Shown: positions 31,910 to 64,000 of the stretch, one piece after another
Layout: the number at the start of each line of letters is the position of its first letter
Position numbering within the stretch: the stretch's first letter is position 1
Source: Dehalococcoidia bacterium
GTDB taxonomy: Bacteria > Chloroflexota > Dehalococcoidia > UBA2979
Direction of reading: 5' to 3'
Assembly (NCBI GenBank): GCA_965262725.1
Contig: OZ253555.1
Location: 1,888,001-1,952,000, forward strand
Length of the DNA: 64,000 nt
Notes under the pieces: generated by a model
The model's database searches: none
Told to the model about the DNA's origin: nothing
What the model saw: the letters and a program-made list of their open reading frames with translations, nothing else
Position numbers and translations under genes: made by a program

Positions 31910-32494
31910 TTAGCAGAAGGGCATGTAGCCACTGCCAACCACAGACGAGGTCAACTGGTCTTCCAGGCTGCTTGGCGCGCACCCGCTCAACAAGTTTTCG
32001 CTGAGGTCCAGCACTTTTAGGTTGGAGAGGCTGCCCAGCTCCGCCGGTATCTCCCCGCTCAAGCTGTTCCAGCCGAGGTCCAACTCTACCAGGTTGGAGA
32101 GGCCGCCCAGCTCCGCCGGTATCTCCCCGCTCAAGTCGTTGCTCTTGAGGTCCAGCTCTGTCAGGCTAGAGAGGCTGCCCAGCTCCGGCGGTATCTCTCC
32201 GCTCAAGTCGTTGCTCTTGAGGTCCAGTATCTCCAGGTTGGAGAGGTTGCCCAGCTCCGCCGGTATCTCCCCGCTCAAGTCGTTGTCGCGGAGGTACAGT
32301 CCCTCCAGGTTGGAGAGGCTGCCCAGCTCCGGCGGTATCTCCCCGCTCAAGTCGTTGTCGCTGAGGCTCAGGCTCTTCAGGTTGGAGAGGCTGCCCAGCT
32401 CCGCCGGTATCTCCCCGCTCAAGTCGTTGTAGCTGAGGCTCAGGCTCTTCAGGTTGGAGAGGCTGCCCAGCTCCGCCGGTATCTCCCCGCTCAA
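31910..32494 (-). pseudogene. 3' part of a plant-type leucine-rich-repeat protein gene (7 x 24 aa), fused to an IS1380 remnant
   Basis: LSGEIP(A/P)ELGxLSNLxxLxLxxNx repeated 7 times (72-bp units), ending LSGCAPSSL...PFC. Confidence 0.88.
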
Positions 32495-33190
32495 AGCGGA
32501 CATCCAGCGCGCGGCAGGCGGCGACGACGGCGTGGGTGTAGAAGCCGCTGTCGGCGCGCATCGTGAGCTGCCCCGACGCCCTCGGCGGAGTCGCACCCGC
32601 GCCACCGTCTCACGCAGGAAGTGGGCGGCGCCGCGGCCGCTGTGCGCGCGGCCCTCGCGCAGCCGCGCCATCAGCACGTCGCCTGAGCCGGCCGCCACCA
32701 CGAGCAACGGGTGATAGCCGCGCGCGCCGCTGTAGCCGGGCTGGCGGGCGCCCTCCTTGGCGAGGCCGTAGGTCTCGCAGAGCGTCGAGTCGAGGTCGAT
32801 TGTGAGCGGCGCGTCGCCGGGTCCCGCTCCGGCCGCCCAGGCGCGGTCGAGCTGGCGGACGTGGCCCCAGCGGAAGCTGCGCAGGAAGGTCCCGAGGGTG
32901 GACGGCGCCTTCACGGTGCAGCCGAGCACGCGCCCGGCGCCGCCGGCGCGCAACGCATCGGCGTCGTCGATGCAGTCGCCGCCCGCGAGCGCCGAGGCGA
33001 CCAGGGTCAGCAGCTTGTCGCCGGCGTTCGCGCGCCCCGCCGCGTCACCGAGGTCGAGATGGCGCTCGGCGAGCTCGCGGAGGCCGAACCGGCCGGCGAG
33101 GGTGGCGGGGAGCAGCAGGCCCGCGTGGTCCACGAGGTGGTCGTCGTCGAAGGCGATGTCTATCCGGTCGGGGTCGCTCGTTGGTAGCAT
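32495..33190 (-). pseudogene. IS1380 transposase 5' half (frameshift ~32590, 3'-deleted)
   Basis: MLPTSDPDRIDIAFDDD..., LTIDLDSTLCETYG, GYHPLL; paralogue of 62403-63728. Confidence 0.9.
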
Positions 33191-33572
33191 CGAATGGGGT
33201 GCGCCAGGCTAACTGGTGCTTGGGCAGGAGGTGCAAGTCCTCTACGGCGAAGGAGCAAGCCACTCCACGCGGTTCCGCGAGCCGTGCGCGACTCGTCGCG
33301 AGGCGAGCCGTGAAGCGTCGGCAGCGGGGTAGGCGGGCGGAGCTATTGAGCATCGAAAGATGCATAATCCGGAGTGCCGAGGCTTTCCCATTGGTCGAAG
33401 GCAACACCGGCAACGGCGCTTCTGGCGAGCCGTCGTCGGGCTCTGCGGTGTCAAAGAACTCACGCACGTCTGCACGTCCAGCACCGGGACCTCATATGGA
33501 TGCCTCGGTTGTCAAGCCCCGTCCAGCGGTACTTGAACGTCCGGTCTGCTGCGGCGGCGGTCGCGCGAGGAT

Positions 33573-33819
33573 GACGACTCCGGGGTGGCGAAGGAGGGAT
33601 GAGCGGGAATTGTTCGACGTCTTGTCACTCTCATATTCGCGGGTTGCCAGTGGCAGAGCCGCATGACCCTTCTTCGTCAGGAGCAGGCGCATTCTGATAT
33701 CGCGGGTTGGCGACGCGAAGCGTCGTTGCCGCATGGTTCCGTCGCGCAGTCTCCGAAACGTAGTCCCGCTTATCCGTCCTTCACCGCCCCCGGAGTCGAG
33801 GTCCCCGCCCTCCGCGGCC
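33573..33819 (-). ncRNA. Bridge/seek-RNA-like module, distal copy
   Basis: 247 bp closed by a ~33-bp imperfect stem; donor-loop segments CTCATAT and GACCCT match the element's end junction AGGGTCTCATAT. Confidence 0.75.
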
Positions 33820-33950
33820 AGCTCCGCTGCATGCTCCTCACTCGCGGCGATGCCTGAGAGCCCCTGCTCCGTCGGGCGGATGTGCTCATCCGTCATCTCG
33901 ACCCTCTGCAGGTAGCTGCCGAAGGCCGCCTGGGCGCCCTTCTCCTGGAA

Positions 33951-34197
33951 GACGACTCCGGGGTGGCGAAGGAGGGATGAGCGGGAATCACTCGACGTTG
34001 TGTCACTCTTATAGTCGCGGGTTGCCAGTGGCAGAGCCGCATGACCTTTCTTCGTCGGGAGGGGGCGCCGTCTGGGAACGCGGGTTGGCGACGCTTCGCG
34101 TCGTTGCCGCATGGTCCCGTCGCGCGATCTCCAGAATGTGGTCCCGTTCATCCGTCCTTCACCGCCCCCGGAGTCGACGTCTCCGCCCTCCGCGGCC
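33951..34197 (-). ncRNA. Bridge/seek-RNA-like module, proximal copy
   Basis: 247-bp paralogue of 33573-33819; target-loop segments CTGGGA and GGTCCCG match the insertion site CGGGACCTGGGA. Confidence 0.75.
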
Positions 34198-34242
34198 GGT
34201 CTGTCCTCCTCTCCGTCCGCTCGCTGTTCGTGGCCAGCCGGC

Positions 34243-35355
34243 TCAGGCGGCCTGCTGCCGCTCTTCAGCGTGGGTGCGCAGCACCGCCCAGATGGCGGCG
34301 AGCAGCTCCCGCGCCACGGCCACGACGGCGACCTGCGACGGCTTGCCTCGCTCCTTGAGATGCCGGTAGCGCCGGGACATCCGGGAACCGGTCTTGTCGG
34401 CCATCGCGACCGCCCAGCCCGGCTGGCCCTGCCGCCGTCTGCGCAGCGGCGCCCCGACGCGGTACGGGCGGATGCTGTGCCAGCCCGCCTCGACCAGCAC
34501 GCGCCGGACGTGCTCGTTCCCCGTCTTGGTGATGCCGCCGCGCCGCGTCCTCGGGCCTGAGCTGTGCTCGCTCGCCACCAGCCCCACGTACGCTGCCAGC
34601 TGGTCGGGGCTTCCGAATCGCGTGATATCGCCGAGCTCGCCCAGGATCGTCATGGCGGTGACCGTGTCGATGCCGCGGAAGCAGCGGAGGAGTCCCGCCT
34701 CCGGCGCATACTCCTCACTCGCGACGATGTCTGAGAGCCTCTGCTCCATCAGGCGGATGTGTTCATCCGCCATCTCCACGCGCTGCAGGTAGCCGTCGAA
34801 TGCCGCCTGGTCGCCCAGCTCCTCGAAGGAGAGCGAGCGCAGCCAGCACCGGTGCTCTCGGGTCCACGTAGACTTACCATAATGGTGGCCCGAGCGCAGC
34901 AGGAACCCCGACAGTTGCACCTGGGCCGTCTTGCGGGCCGCAACGGCGTCCTCGCGCCCACGGGTGAGGTTGCGCACAGATTCCTGCCGCTCAGTCGGCT
35001 GGTGCACCTCGGTGAGCAGTCCCGCGCGCAAGAGATGCGCCAGGTTCCGCGCGTCGCGGCGGTCCGTCTTGACGCGGTCTCCCGGCTTTGTGGGGATCAG
35101 CGCCGGCGCGATGACGCGGCAGTCGATCCCCTTCGCATCGAGAGTGCGCTTCAGCCCGAACCCGGTCGGGCCCGCCTCGTAGCAACAGACCACGGAATCC
35201 CCGGCCTCGCGGCGCAGTCGCCGCGCCAGCGCCGCCACGGACGTCGGCTCGTTGGCGAGCTGCCACTCTTCGGGCTTCTTCTCCCCGTGCAGAACGGAGA
35301 CGTTGATCGTCCGCGCGTGCACGTCGAGGCCCACGTATAGCTTCGTCTGGTCCAT
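34243..35355 (-). CDS. IS110/IS1111 DEDD recombinase
   Basis: YVGLDVH, CYEAGPTG, VKTDRRDA, FRGIDTVTAM, YVGLVASEHSSG, GITKTGN. Confidence 0.95.
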   Translation of the reverse strand: MDQTKLYVGLDVHARTINVSVLHGEKKPEEWQLANEPTSVAALARRLRREAGDSVVCCYEAGPTGFGLKRTLDAKGIDCRVIAPALIPTKPGDRVKTDRRDARNLAHLLRAGLLTEVHQPTERQESVRNLTRGREDAVAARKTAQVQLSGFLLRSGHHYGKSTWTREHRCWLRSLSFEELGDQAAFDGYLQRVEMADEHIRLMEQRLSDIVASEEYAPEAGLLRCFRGIDTVTAMTILGELGDITRFGSPDQLAAYVGLVASEHSSGPRTRRGGITKTGNEHVRRVLVEAGWHSIRPYRVGAPLRRRRQGQPGWAVAMADKTGSRMSRRYRHLKERGKPSQVAVVAVARELLAAIWAVLRTHAEERQQAA

Positions 35356-35915
35356 CTGGTCTGCCCCCTACCCCTTCCATGTTCCGGTCCGGTTCCGCTC
35401 CGATGTTGCACTCGGAACAGAAACCGACACCGGTTCTCAAGGTGTCGAGGCATCCATAGGGTCTGGGAGGGCTCGGCCTTGTCCCTGCGTGTTGCCACGC
35501 CGGGACCGCAACGGAAAGGGCGATTCCGTAATCCGTTGACGCACGAGGTCGAGCAATCAGATCCGGCCATAGTAGTGATGAGGGCGGCGAACAAAGAGGA
35601 GTAGACACCCTCGGCGGAGTCGACGGAGCGAAGGGCCGGACCGGAGGGGAAGCTGGCGAAGCCCGGCACTGGCGGGACACTGCGCCCGCGTTTGGTGTCA
35701 CTCGGGCCACCCGGCTACGGCACCTCTTGGGTGCCGTCTGACCTGACGGAGGAGCCGTATGCGTTAACGCGCACGTACGGATCTGTCCGGGGGGCGGCCG
35801 GCAACGGCCGTCCCTACCGGAATTGCTCCCTGTGGCTGTGACGTGATTCGTTCAAAAACCATTGTCCCAGCTACAGCGGAGCACCCAACCGCAGACGCTC
35901 GCGCACTCTTCTTCG

Positions 35916-37833
35916 GTTCGCGGTAGGGATGCCGGTTGCCCGGCACCCCCCGCACAGATCCGGACGTGCCCTCTCGGGCATCCGGCTCCTACCTCAAGTG
36001 CGTGACGGCAAATCGCTCCGCAGGCCACGGGTGAAGGATGGAGATTCGGGGCCAGTGTTTCTGGCACAGGGCAAGGATGCGCTCCCACGTGAAACGGTCG
36101 CGCTGCGACCGCCGTCGGAGAACGCGCAGCCAGAGCCGCTTCACGAAACGAACAAACCGCGTGAGCGCCGGCGAGCTGGTCGGCACCGCGTAGTAGCCAA
36201 GCCACCCACGCAGTACCCGCCCCAGCCACTGCCCCGTCGTCACGGGGTTGTCGTGCATGCGCCGCCACAACTCGGCCTTGATGACCTTCAGCGTCCGGCG
36301 CATCCGCTTCGCAACGGGCTTGCGCCCCAGCCCGAATCTCCCGTCGCGTCGGGTCCGGCAGTAGTGCGTCATGCCGAGAAAGTCGAACGTTTCCGGTCGG
36401 CCCTCCCCGCGCTTCCGCCTGTTCGCCAGCGCGAACCTGCCGAACTCAAGTAGACGGGTCTTCTCCGGGTGCAGCTCCAGCCCGTAGGCCGCGAACCGCT
36501 CCCGGAGTGCCTCCATGAACCGCACCGCATCGCTGCGGTGCTGGAAACCCAGGACGAAGTCATCGGCATACCGCACGATGTACGCCTCGCCCCGGACCTC
36601 CCGCGGTCGCCACTCGCGCGCAAACCAGTCGTCGAGCACGTTGTGCAGGTACACGTTCGCAAGCAGCGGCGATATCGGCGCCCCCTGCGGCATCCCCCGC
36701 ACGAAATCGACTTCCGGCTCCGCGTCCATGACGCCGACGCTCAGCCACTTTCGTATCAGGCGCAACACCCGCTGGTCCCCGATGCGCATCTCCAGAAACG
36801 ACATCAGCCGCCCCCGGTCGATGCTGCCGAAGAACTCCCGGATGTCCACCTCGACAATCCAGCTGACCTTGCGCCGTTCGACCGCGTAGGCCAGTGCGTC
36901 CAGCGCGTCATGCGCCGAACGCCCCGGCCTGAAGCCATGCGAGAAGCCGTAGTAGCCCGACTCGTAAATCGGGTTCAAAAGATTGTCCACCACCGCCCGC
37001 TGAACGATCTTGTCCTCCAGCGAGACGATACCGAGCGGCCGTATTCCCCCGTCCGGCTTGGGTATCTCTACCCGCCTGACGGGCTTCGCCCGGTACGCTC
37101 CACGGTGTACGCGGCCATGCAGGTCGAGCAATCGCTCGTCCAGCCCGTCCCCGTATTCTCGCCACCTCACCCCGTCCACGCCCGGAGCCGCATCCCGCTT
37201 CAACGCGAGATACGCCTCCCGCAGCGCCTCCGGCGTGATGTGGTGCAAGAGCGCGGTGAGTTTCTCTCCCGGCTTCCGTTCCACGAACTGCCGTATCCTC
37301 TCCGCTCCGGGTGACACCGCACCCCGACTCTGCGTCCGGACCGTGCCGGTGCTTTGAGGATTCCTCTCGGTTGGGGCCCTTTGCTCCAGCGACTCCGCCG
37401 GGGCTCGCGCCCCCTTGTTCGCCGCCTTCATCGCTCGTACGGCCCCATCAGACTGCTGCGCATCGTTCATCATCGGCTACGGTTTACGTCCCTTCCCGAC
37501 GCGGTCCCGGCGTACGACTCGTCGGGACAACGCGCAGCTCTCCCAAGTCCCGGCGATAGACGTGTGTGCGTGCATGGGGTCTTCGACACCGTGGGGCCCG
37601 ACCACGACTCGCCAGTAGCGCCGTCGCCGGTATTGCCTTCGACCAATCCAAGAGCCTCGGCACCCCAAATGGCCCTTTCGATGCTCATTAGCCCCGCCCG
37701 CACACCCCGCTGCCGACGCTTCACAAGCCGCCTCGCGACGACCCGCGCACGGCTCGCGGAATGACATGAGTGGCTAGCTCTTTGCCATAGAGGACTTCCA
37801 CCTCCTGCCTACTCGCCAGTTAGCCTGGCGCTC
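35916..37833 (-). mobile_element. Complete group II intron A (1918 nt, bacterial class E-like) encoding an RT/maturase
   Basis: 5' end GAGCGCCAGG; domain V GAGCCGGATGCC...GGCACGTCCGGATC directly after the stop codon; domain VI ending CCCTACCGCGAAC; EBS1 TGGATT vs IBS1 GATCCA. Confidence 0.92.
35989..37473 (-). CDS. ltrA: Group II intron reverse transcriptase/maturase (no endonuclease domain)
   Basis: APGVDG, IPKPDGGIRPLGI, GFRPGRSAHDAL, GMPQGAPISPLLANVYL, YADD, FDFLG, X domain GWLGYYAVP. Confidence 0.95.
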   Translation of the reverse strand: MMNDAQQSDGAVRAMKAANKGARAPAESLEQRAPTERNPQSTGTVRTQSRGAVSPGAERIRQFVERKPGEKLTALLHHITPEALREAYLALKRDAAPGVDGVRWREYGDGLDERLLDLHGRVHRGAYRAKPVRRVEIPKPDGGIRPLGIVSLEDKIVQRAVVDNLLNPIYESGYYGFSHGFRPGRSAHDALDALAYAVERRKVSWIVEVDIREFFGSIDRGRLMSFLEMRIGDQRVLRLIRKWLSVGVMDAEPEVDFVRGMPQGAPISPLLANVYLHNVLDDWFAREWRPREVRGEAYIVRYADDFVLGFQHRSDAVRFMEALRERFAAYGLELHPEKTRLLEFGRFALANRRKRGEGRPETFDFLGMTHYCRTRRDGRFGLGRKPVAKRMRRTLKVIKAELWRRMHDNPVTTGQWLGRVLRGWLGYYAVPTSSPALTRFVRFVKRLWLRVLRRRSQRDRFTWERILALCQKHWPRISILHPWPAERFAVTHLR

Positions 37834-61793: not shown

Positions 61794-62180
61794 GAGCGCC
61801 AGGCTAACTGGCGAGTAGGCAGGAGGTGGAAGTCCTCTATGGCAAAGAGCTAGCCACTCATGTCATTCCGCGAGCCGTGCGCGGGTCGTCGCGAGGCGGC
61901 TTGTGAAGCGTCGGCAGCGGGGTGTGCGGGCGGGGCTAATGAGCATCGAAAGGGCCATTTGGGGTGCCGAGGCTCTTGGATTGGTCGAAGGCAATACCGG
62001 CGACGGCGCTACTGGCGAGTCGTGGTCGGGCCCCACGGTGTCGAAGACCCCATGCACGCACACACGTCTATCGCCGGGACTTGGGAGAGCTGCGCGTTGT
62101 CCCGACGAGTCGTACGCCGGGACCGCGTCGGGAAGGGACGTAAACCGTAGCCGATGATGCACGATGCGCAGCAGTCTGAT
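61794..62180 (+). mobile_element. 5' fragment of a second copy of group II intron A, preceded by the IS1380 left tip
   Basis: Near-identical reverse complement of ~37447-37833 with the same 5' exon GCCCTGATCCA; truncated by the right end of the next IS1380. Confidence 0.92.
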
Positions 62181-63736: not shown

Positions 63737-64000
63737 GTGCGCCAGGCTAACTGGTGCTTGGGCAGGAGGTGCAAGTCCTCTACGGCGAAGGAGCAAGCCA
63801 CTCCACGCGGTTCCGCGAGCCGTGCGCGACTCGTCGCGAGGCGAGCCGTGAAGCGTCGGCAGCGGGGTAGGCGGGCGGAGCTATTGAGCATCGAAAGATG
63901 CATAATCCGGAGTGCCGAGGCTTTCCCATTGGTCGAAGGCAACACCGGCGACGGCGCTTCTGGCGAGCCGTCGTCGGGCTCTGCGGTGTCAAAGAACTCA
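63737..64000 (+). ncRNA. 5' part of a second copy of group II intron B (runs off the window)
   Basis: Near-identical to 33199-33462, inserted at the same site CATCGAATGGG|GTGCG, 8 bp upstream of the IS1380 ATG. Confidence 0.9.

Follow-up and report, generated by a model that had tools for sequence, protein, structure and literature searches.

Does an insertion sequence (IS) that carries two guide-RNA modules beside a single recombinase gene use one module, both, or one loop of each? The question is raised by an IS1111-type element in the window, the 64,000-nt stretch of the Dehalococcoidia bacterium contig OZ253555.1 that we analysed. A first-pass annotation, made from the letters alone, had described a tandem pair of complete bridge/seekRNA modules with different guides 3′ of the recombinase gene, and protein domains, repeats, fold and guide matches all uphold this description. 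Judging from sequence comparisons, we assign a probability of about 0.6 to the reading that the element encodes a natural two-module bridge RNA with a division of labour, in which the target loop of the module proximal to the gene and the donor loop of the distal module guide insertion. The proximal target loop would direct the recombinase to nnCC-AG-GTCCC(G) (element strand), and the abutted element ends, ATATG-AG-ACCCT, would be read by the distal donor loop; target and donor recognition would thus come from two different RNA domains. Under this division of labour, the proximal donor loop would be a near-cognate spare that drifts between copies, and the first loop of the distal module (loop 1) a hybrid without an observed target, whose 3′ strand looks overwritten by donor-loop sequence. 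Two findings make such an arrangement plausible: target and donor loops supplied as separate RNAs support IS622 recombination in human cells (10.1101/2025.05.14.653916), and solved complexes have a separate recombinase dimer on each loop (PMC13626964).

The recombinase contains the PF01548 (DEDD_Tnp_IS110, 2.1e-17) and PF02371 (Transposase_20, 3.3e-21) domains, both above their curated cut-offs, and matches the transposase chains of ISCro4 (2.2e-08) and IS621 (5e-07). Its residues D11, E60, D98, D101 and S266 are identical to the aligned residues of the ISCro4 transposase; in IS621, the mutated residues are named D11/E60/D102/D105 and S241 (PMC11208158). The catalytic D-E-D-D set and the conserved serine are present, as judged by positional equivalence in the ISCro4 alignment. 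The left end (LE) is 109 nt long, the 3′ non-coding region extends over 750 nt up to the element end, and the only two occurrences of the 12-nt inverted repeat ATGGATGCCTCG in the 1972-nt element are at positions 8 and 1961 (7 and 3 nt from the ends). This is the anatomy described for the IS1111 group, that is, a long non-coding right end, a short left end and sub-terminal inverted repeats of 7 to 17 bp (PMC11208160).

The ends and the target are as the first-pass annotation had claimed. On the plus strand, the left flank ...CCGGGAC-CT is followed by the element, which runs from CATATGG to CCATAGGGT-CT, and then by the right flank GGGAGGG, so that the same dinucleotide (CT on the plus strand, AG on the element strand) stands on both flanks. 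Contigs from four of four public runs (four studies), one of which may be the sample behind the genome, represent the empty site and join 33490 to 35463, omitting exactly 1972 nt with a 2-nt ambiguity; the element boundaries are therefore exact. Insertion is site-specific and duplicates nothing beyond the shared core dinucleotide, as 11 flank sets share CC-AG-GTC and the empty sites are contiguous. A joint of both element ends, as in a circle, was absent from the contig joints listed, and contigs drop rare forms. A backward joint of 395 at 33951->33557 (X1, X2) was set aside, since the two modules share their first ~40 nt, which accounts for it. The TTGACA motif in the right-end tail is conserved in all relatives; a sigma-70 consensus scan of 33300-35700 returned no promoter-like site, and inspection by eye showed no obvious -10 box facing this motif across the joined ends. 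All 20 rows of public sequencing runs listed for 33493-34300, from 10 studies, are DNA, with no RNA run among them.

A repeat search identified the modules as two direct copies of 251 nt, 88% identical and spaced by 378 nt, which agrees with the pair and the spacing of the first-pass annotation; its module extent was 247 nt (33573-33819 and 33951-34197). A second repeat relates the sequence between the modules to an internal piece of the recombinase gene. In the consensus fold (RNAalifold, 15 modules), a closing stem of ~20 pairs encloses two arms, each of which is an internal loop round a conserved hairpin (ATGCGG...CCCGCG on the RNA strand). When the 750-nt 3′ region was folded as a whole by minimum free energy, each module formed its own closed domain (-355.7 kcal/mol, z -6.25, with none of 20 shuffles as stable). 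The folding and alignment that had been proposed as a check thus turned out in favour of the modules: 96.2% of cells pair, compared to 34-48% when partners are slid, and both sides are changed in 16 pairs, a number that none of 500 shuffles attained (8.5 ± 1.5). Eleven of these 16 pairs belong to the closing stem. The Rfam 15 covariance models gave no match to 33493-34242 at gathering score or E <= 1, and the flanking intron was the sole match in the part scanned. Solo modules are absent from the genome, every blastn match of either module falling inside one of four elements.

These four elements (c1 to c4, c1 being the window copy) all have both modules and the same ends. They reside in the genome of the window (G000, a single contig of 3.67 Mb), whose nearest named relatives are Dehalococcoidia metagenome-assembled genomes (MAGs). 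Copies c3 and c4 are 2095 bp long because their inter-module gene fragment measures 254 nt instead of ~130, and c3 sits in a diverged paralog of the intron that holds c1. In c2, the distal module is interrupted by an insert of ~4 kb with a 9-bp duplication (G000:C1:2020977-2025007, locus L111), which cuts the distal donor loop; the insert contains IS21-type istA/istB-like open reading frames (ORFs) and a Mutator-family transposase ORF. A sister-species MAG (G083) has eight complete copies and one of which only the left end was found. All eight complete copies are two-module elements with the same ends, and they are identical across 1975 nt while their flanks differ. The loci orthologous to five insertion sites are empty in G000, with contiguous flanks. 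The two-module element thus transposes as a whole unit. Its insertion context is domain IV of an ORF-less group II intron in G000 and mostly ordinary chromosomal sequence in G083. At three G083 loci (L029, L049 and L051), the flanks of three identical copies are cyclically permuted relative to G000:C1:3010948, ~2070040 and the intron sites, which suggests genome rearrangement by recombination between identical IS copies.

Outside these two genomes, the picture is one of single modules. A related recombinase (E <= 1e-40) was found in 10 of 99 family or order genomes, G083 among them, with a DNA match in 9, and the relatives in five other genomes, at 56-65% protein identity, are elements of ~1.5-1.6 kb with one module. 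Scans of genome contigs and metagenome contigs returned no two-module element beyond G000 and G083; the next relatives are at most 65% identical, and the best metagenome matches reach 43-44%.

The single-module relatives allowed us to calibrate how the loops are read. For seven such elements from five genomes, the loop strands were compared with each element's own flanks and ends, match length being the number of contiguous nucleotides counted from the core. In all seven, loop 1 corresponds to the target: its 5′ strand is reverse-complementary to the core plus the right flank over 7-8 nt, and its 3′ strand repeats the left flank plus the core over 4-5 nt. Loop 2 corresponds to the ends in the same way, with a 5′ strand reverse-complementary to the core G and the left end (4-6 nt) and a 3′ strand that repeats the right end plus the core (5-7 nt). 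The guides follow the flanks, with CTGTA, GTGTA, GGTGAG, CAGGCT, AGGTC and TGTCCT each mirrored in the element's own guide, and the same guide logic is known for IS110/IS1111 elements (PMC11208160, PMC11187229). At the right-end position next to the core, the guide matches in seven of seven relatives; a mismatch at left-end position +4 occurs in one family (L030).

Read by these rules, the element has internal loops predicted to pair with the target flanks and the element ends round a shared core, as expected of a bridge/seekRNA, and the loops of its two modules differ in what they fit (matches are given for the right half and then the left half). Proximal loop 1 matches the target over 7 and 6 nt in all copies and is cognate; distal loop 1 matches it over 3 and 3 nt, outside the 7-8 and 4-5 nt of the relatives. 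The target consensus given above derives from 11 distinct flank sets, with C at -2 and -1 in 11 of 11 and C at +3 in 10 of 10. At these positions the proximal guides carry C, C and C, and the distal guides differ by T at -2 and T at +3. For the ends, the relation is reversed: distal loop 2 matches them over 6 and 7 nt in all copies, which equals the best single-module relatives, compared to 4 and 2 nt (c1), 4 and 6 nt (c2, c3 and c4) or 6 and 2 nt (G083) for proximal loop 2. The base of the right end next to the core is G here, compared to C or A in the relatives, and the distal donor guide is the only one with the matching G in all copies. The first-pass annotation had placed the cognate target loop in the proximal module and the only fully cognate donor loop in the distal one, and both the match lengths and the 11 flank sets bear this out.

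The core-adjacent position of proximal loop 2 (window 34010, plus strand; element position 1455) is A in c1, G in c2 to c4 and C in G083. The proximal donor loop ending in TATAG (plus strand) that had been reported is therefore correct for c1 and does not hold in general, since the G of c2-c4 matches the real end. Three alleles at one site are unusual given the ~2% site difference among near-identical copies. In G083, the proximal donor guide is mismatched next to the core at the right end, leaving a contiguous match of the two core nucleotides only. A single RNA with both a cognate target loop and a cognate donor loop is thus lacking in c1 and G083, and the proximal module of c2-c4, at 4 and 6 nt, is a borderline case.

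Distal loop 1 is, by its letters, a hybrid of a right-end-like (ATATC-AG) and a right-flank-like (GTTCCG) half: its left half is identical at 6 of 7 positions to the real right end plus core and its right half at 6 of 7 to the right flank. Four of the five differences of its 3′ strand from the proximal copy shift it towards the donor-loop strand (distal loop 1, ATATCAGAATG; donor loop of the relatives, ATATCAGAGTG; proximal target loop, TTCCCAGACGG), and it retains the ancestral C where the right end now has G. The site that it predicts fits none of the 11 distinct flank sets and has no exact match in G083, in which the element is most active and two one-mismatch matches compare with three for a control. 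This speaks against the suggestion of the first-pass annotation that the pair gives one recombinase two specificities. In G000, the predicted site has one exact match, which is unoccupied and lies inside a ~250-nt repeat. The four copies of this repeat (G000:C1:2410755-2411354, 3384791-3385032, 328868-329118 and 1509059-1509271) are all unoccupied, and the one copy scanned has no Rfam match. The first-pass annotation had also envisaged a sibling element whose junction would fit the proximal donor loop of c1; this junction has no match in the window genome at 0-1 mismatch, and the one predicted by the G083 proximal donor loop has no exact match and five one-mismatch matches, none of them at an element end.

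Proximal and distal modules differ in 1 of 116 paired columns (C-G to U-G) and in 37 of 145 unpaired ones. Since circularity had to be avoided, the structure was also taken from 11 single-module sequences only, which gives 4 of 138 paired versus 34 of 123 unpaired columns (Fisher p 7e-9). The loop-1 arm is a mosaic in which stems of 3-6 pairs remain unchanged between diverged stretches of 2-5 nt, a pattern that would not arise from gene-conversion tracts. Polarised by the relatives, 11 derived changes fall in the proximal and 13 in the distal module, and 14 are undecided. The gene fragment between the modules behaves differently: its long form aligns to nt 415-657 of the recombinase gene at 79% with one frameshift, and its differences are spread over the codon positions as 17/18/15 (81 positions each), with 30 non-synonymous and 8 synonymous codon changes. 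It has drifted as non-coding DNA for most of its divergence. This spacer exists in the long form and in three distinct shortened forms (c1, c2 and G083), and the modules are intact except for the distal one of c2 with its unrelated insert. Since nearly all differences between the modules fall at unpaired positions and the intervening gene fragment drifts neutrally, both scaffolds look selected, that is, under constraint while in tandem.

The same fragment points to how the pair may have arisen. A tandem duplication would have copied the segment from gene nt ~415 to just past the RNA module, and one deletion of ~500 nt would then have removed most of the second gene copy, which would leave the order gene - module - gene fragment - module - right end. 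In the long form, the end of the first module with a tail of ~10 nt is followed by gene nt 415-657 and then by the second module. A tandem insertion of a functional sibling followed by two deletions was ranked below this origin, because the fragment has no third-position excess and the element has no internal left end or inverted repeat.

How far do these data oblige the two modules to cooperate? Several points weigh against a strict division of labour. In c2-c4, the match of the proximal donor loop falls within the range of the single-module relatives (minima 4 and 5), and the proximal module alone might suffice there. Cooperation need therefore not be obligatory, and the target/donor split of the first-pass annotation holds for c1 and G083, the proximal module of c2-c4 being borderline self-sufficient. 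The G at the core-adjacent proximal position of c2-c4 could be compensatory, which would argue that the proximal donor loop is used. The stems of both apparently unused loops are conserved as well as those of the used ones, and a model in which just two loops are used leaves this unexplained. With respect to selection, gene conversion between the modules could have exaggerated the contrast between paired and unpaired positions, for instance in the 41 consecutive identical columns across the donor hairpin; the post-duplication constraint is drawn from a within-element comparison in an element found in only two species; and the age of the duplication is inferred from a single 244-nt fragment. 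The likeliest alternative is that the proximal module alone works and that the distal one is a redundant leftover of the duplication, retained for no other reason than its location between the functional module and a right end that the element cannot lose. The range of c2-c4, the like mismatch at left-end position +4 in the single-module L030 family and the lack of an observed target for distal loop 1 would all fit such a relic, as would the description of tandem repeat units beside IS110 recombinase genes as common by-products of local expansion (10.64898/2026.08.14.744561). We nevertheless consider it unlikely, since the distal module shows no decay, with 1-4 paired differences and balanced changes next to a fragment that is 21% diverged without codon bias. 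Moreover, the proximal donor guide of G083, a genome in which the element was recently active by its eight identical copies, is mismatched at the very position where all seven single-module relatives match, and the change of the right end to G is mirrored by the distal donor guide in every copy.

It is also conceivable that all four loops function and that selection keeps an array of differently programmed domains: the distal hybrid loop could read the right junction of the element itself and, together with the spare donor-type loop, tune excision or copy-out, or it could open a second target class; the proximal donor-type loop could also serve a second donor configuration. Here, the conserved stems of the seemingly unused arms, which persist at fine scale though the guides differ, would find an explanation, and so would the composition of distal loop 1, with its two 6/7-identical halves and its 3′ strand shifted at four of five differences towards donor-loop sequence. 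Published work offers further points of contact: binding across both loops is less efficient for excision substrates than for insertion substrates (PMC13626964), extra loop RNAs can cooperate with a full bridge RNA (10.1101/2025.10.25.684509), one IS110 locus has several donor-binding loops tied to different circle junctions (10.64898/2026.08.14.744561), and the idea connects to half-match recombination (10.64898/2026.08.31.748434). However, distal loop 1 is mismatched to the right junction of today at two positions, one of them adjacent to the core, where, unlike the distal donor loop, it has not adopted the G that replaced C in the right end; there is no complementary left-junction loop, proximal loop 2 being the ancestral donor loop; and the predicted second site, which fits none of the flank sets and has a single exact match in G000 and none in G083, holds no copy of the element. 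These mismatches and the lack of insertions at the second site make a four-loop array improbable. As for an assembly artefact or a one-off post-insertion chimera, either of which the first-pass annotation had named as a way to be wrong, short-read contigs break inside the identical parts of the modules and cannot alone span both, but contigs in four of four runs from four studies link the distal-specific loops to the spacer and the proximal-specific loops to the gene. With all 12 complete copies (4 of 4 in G000 and 8 of 8 in G083) in two separately assembled MAGs having two modules, we give this explanation practically no credence. We prefer the reading in which labour is divided between the target loop of the proximal module and the donor loop of the distal one. 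The features on which it draws are listed in Table 1.

Table 1. Positions of the element, its guide loops and the interrupted intron in the window. Guide letters are those of the plus strand.
Feature	Position	Strand	Details
Whole IS1111-type element	33493-35464	-	1972 bp including one CT/AG core copy; second core copy 33491-33492
Left end (LE)	35356-35464	-	starts AG, then ACCCTATGG (element strand); 12-nt sub-terminal inverted repeat 35446-35457
Recombinase gene, 370 aa	34243-35355	-	PF01548 + PF02371 domains
Proximal bridge/seekRNA module	33947-34197	-	repeat, consensus fold, guide matches
Proximal target loop, guides	34113-34119; 34072-34078		GGTCCCG; CTGGGAA
Proximal donor-type loop, guides	34043-34049; 34008-34015		GACCTTT; CTTATAGT
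Recombinase pseudogene fragment between modules	33822-33951	-	85% identity to 34699-34828; 254 nt in long-form c3/c4
Distal bridge/seekRNA module	33569-33819	-	repeat, consensus fold, guide matches
Distal loop 1 (target-type), guides	33735-33741; 33694-33700		GGTTCCG; CTGATAT
Distal donor loop, guides	33665-33671; 33630-33637		GACCCTT; CTCATATT
Right-end tail	33493-33568	-	sub-terminal inverted repeat 33496-33507; TTGACA 33510-33515 (plus strand TGTCAA)
ORF-less group II intron holding the insertion site, 5′ part (domains I-IV)	33199-33492	+	RF02005 at 33234-33460, 163 bits; boundary by flank BLAST
Same ORF-less group II intron, 3′ part	35465-35823	+	domain V/VI 35750-35823; RF00029 39.3 bits, E 1.3e-05, gathering score 40

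The two intron halves round the element belong together, as flank BLAST found the two flanks of the element to be contiguous in uninterrupted intron paralogs. The IS-bearing intron stands tail to tail with a group II intron that encodes a reverse transcriptase (35916-37798, minus strand), and the ~90 nt between the two introns are part of a sequence repeated ~14 times in the genome with contiguous flanks. Two further 5′ parts of group II introns lie near the window end (61829-62050 and 63772-63998, plus strand); copy c4 begins 31 nt beyond the window end, after the second of these, in the same arrangement as at 33234-33493. On the other side of the element, at 31910-33190 (minus strand), a 426-aa ORF combines an N-terminal DDE transposase match (PF13701) with in-frame leucine-rich repeats (LRR_1, LRR_8 and others) and resembles a chimera or a disrupted transposase gene that runs on into a leucine-rich-repeat gene. 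In another genome (G077), a second IS110-family element of ~1.5 kb (L110:288-1794, contig C4), with a 419-aa ORF that has PF01548 and PF02371 and runs on the opposite strand, is inserted between GGCAACCCG and CGAATATCAG of a donor loop. The same insertion spot is occupied in L020, L038 and L056 (G077) and in L040 and L080 (G076), in four different single-module variants; this second element looks like one that targets the conserved bridge-RNA scaffold of another IS.

Compared to the IS1111-group elements described so far, such as ISEc11 (PMC11187229, PMC11208160), the present element shares the DEDD recombinase with PF01548 and PF02371, the 3′ RNA in a long right end, the sub-terminal inverted repeats, the lack of duplication beyond the dinucleotide and the internal-loop guides that pair with flanks and ends. 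It differs in its two tandem modules (88% identical) with different guides, in the split of the cognate loops between them and in the pseudogene fragment that lies between; the main text of the seekRNA paper (PMC11187229) does not use the word "tandem". The element would be a natural counterpart of the engineered split bridge RNA of IS622/ISCro4 (10.1101/2025.05.14.653916), where target and donor loops likewise reside on separate RNA domains and recombination is supported. That system is a laboratory design in the IS110 group, whereas here natural, full two-loop modules of an IS1111-group element, presumably co-transcribed, would act together, a function that we infer. Expanded IS110 loci (10.64898/2026.08.14.744561) resemble the element in having tandem non-coding units beside the gene and several predicted donor loops, and their authors likewise raise flexible guide usage. 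Those arrays have at least 95% identity, and their growth is described as progressively decoupled from whole-unit mobility; the pair studied here is old (12% diverged), structure-conserving and compact (~2 kb), and it moves as a unit. At 88% identity, it falls outside the tandem expansions as defined in that work (same-strand adjacent units of at least 50 bp with at least 95% identity). CazIS110-1 (10.1101/2025.10.25.684509) likewise involves more than one guide RNA species per element in transposition, but its second RNA derives by truncation from the one bridge RNA, whereas here a further module with guides of its own is encoded. In ISPpu9 (PMC12288879), also of the IS110 family, a modular RNA gene, ssr9, lies on the 3′ side of the recombinase gene; ssr9 is dispensable for transposition, self-circularising and present in solo copies, whereas solo modules are absent here.

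As far as these sources go, single-module IS1111 RNAs, engineered split bridge RNAs, tandem units beside IS110 genes and one locus with multiple donor loops are already in print or preprint. For an old, structure-conserving pair of complete, differently guided modules that combines split cognate loops with mobility as a unit, we found no published account in a literature search that did not extend to supplements, and figures S8-S10 of 10.64898/2026.08.14.744561 could hold a closer case.

In the current model of bridge/seekRNA recombinases, one protein works with one bispecific RNA, and here an evidently active element keeps two diverged modules. Should the distal module prove dispensable, the element would still provide a dated example of RNA duplication and drift. 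If both modules are needed, the split-guide design that proved workable in engineering already exists in nature, and guide modules can duplicate and be reprogrammed separately, which would open a route to a new target or new ends without loss of function. With its ~2 kb, the element offers a test case for the number of loops sampled per recombinase tetramer, for the co-evolution of donor guide and element end (C to G, followed in one module) and for a part of hybrid loops in excision.

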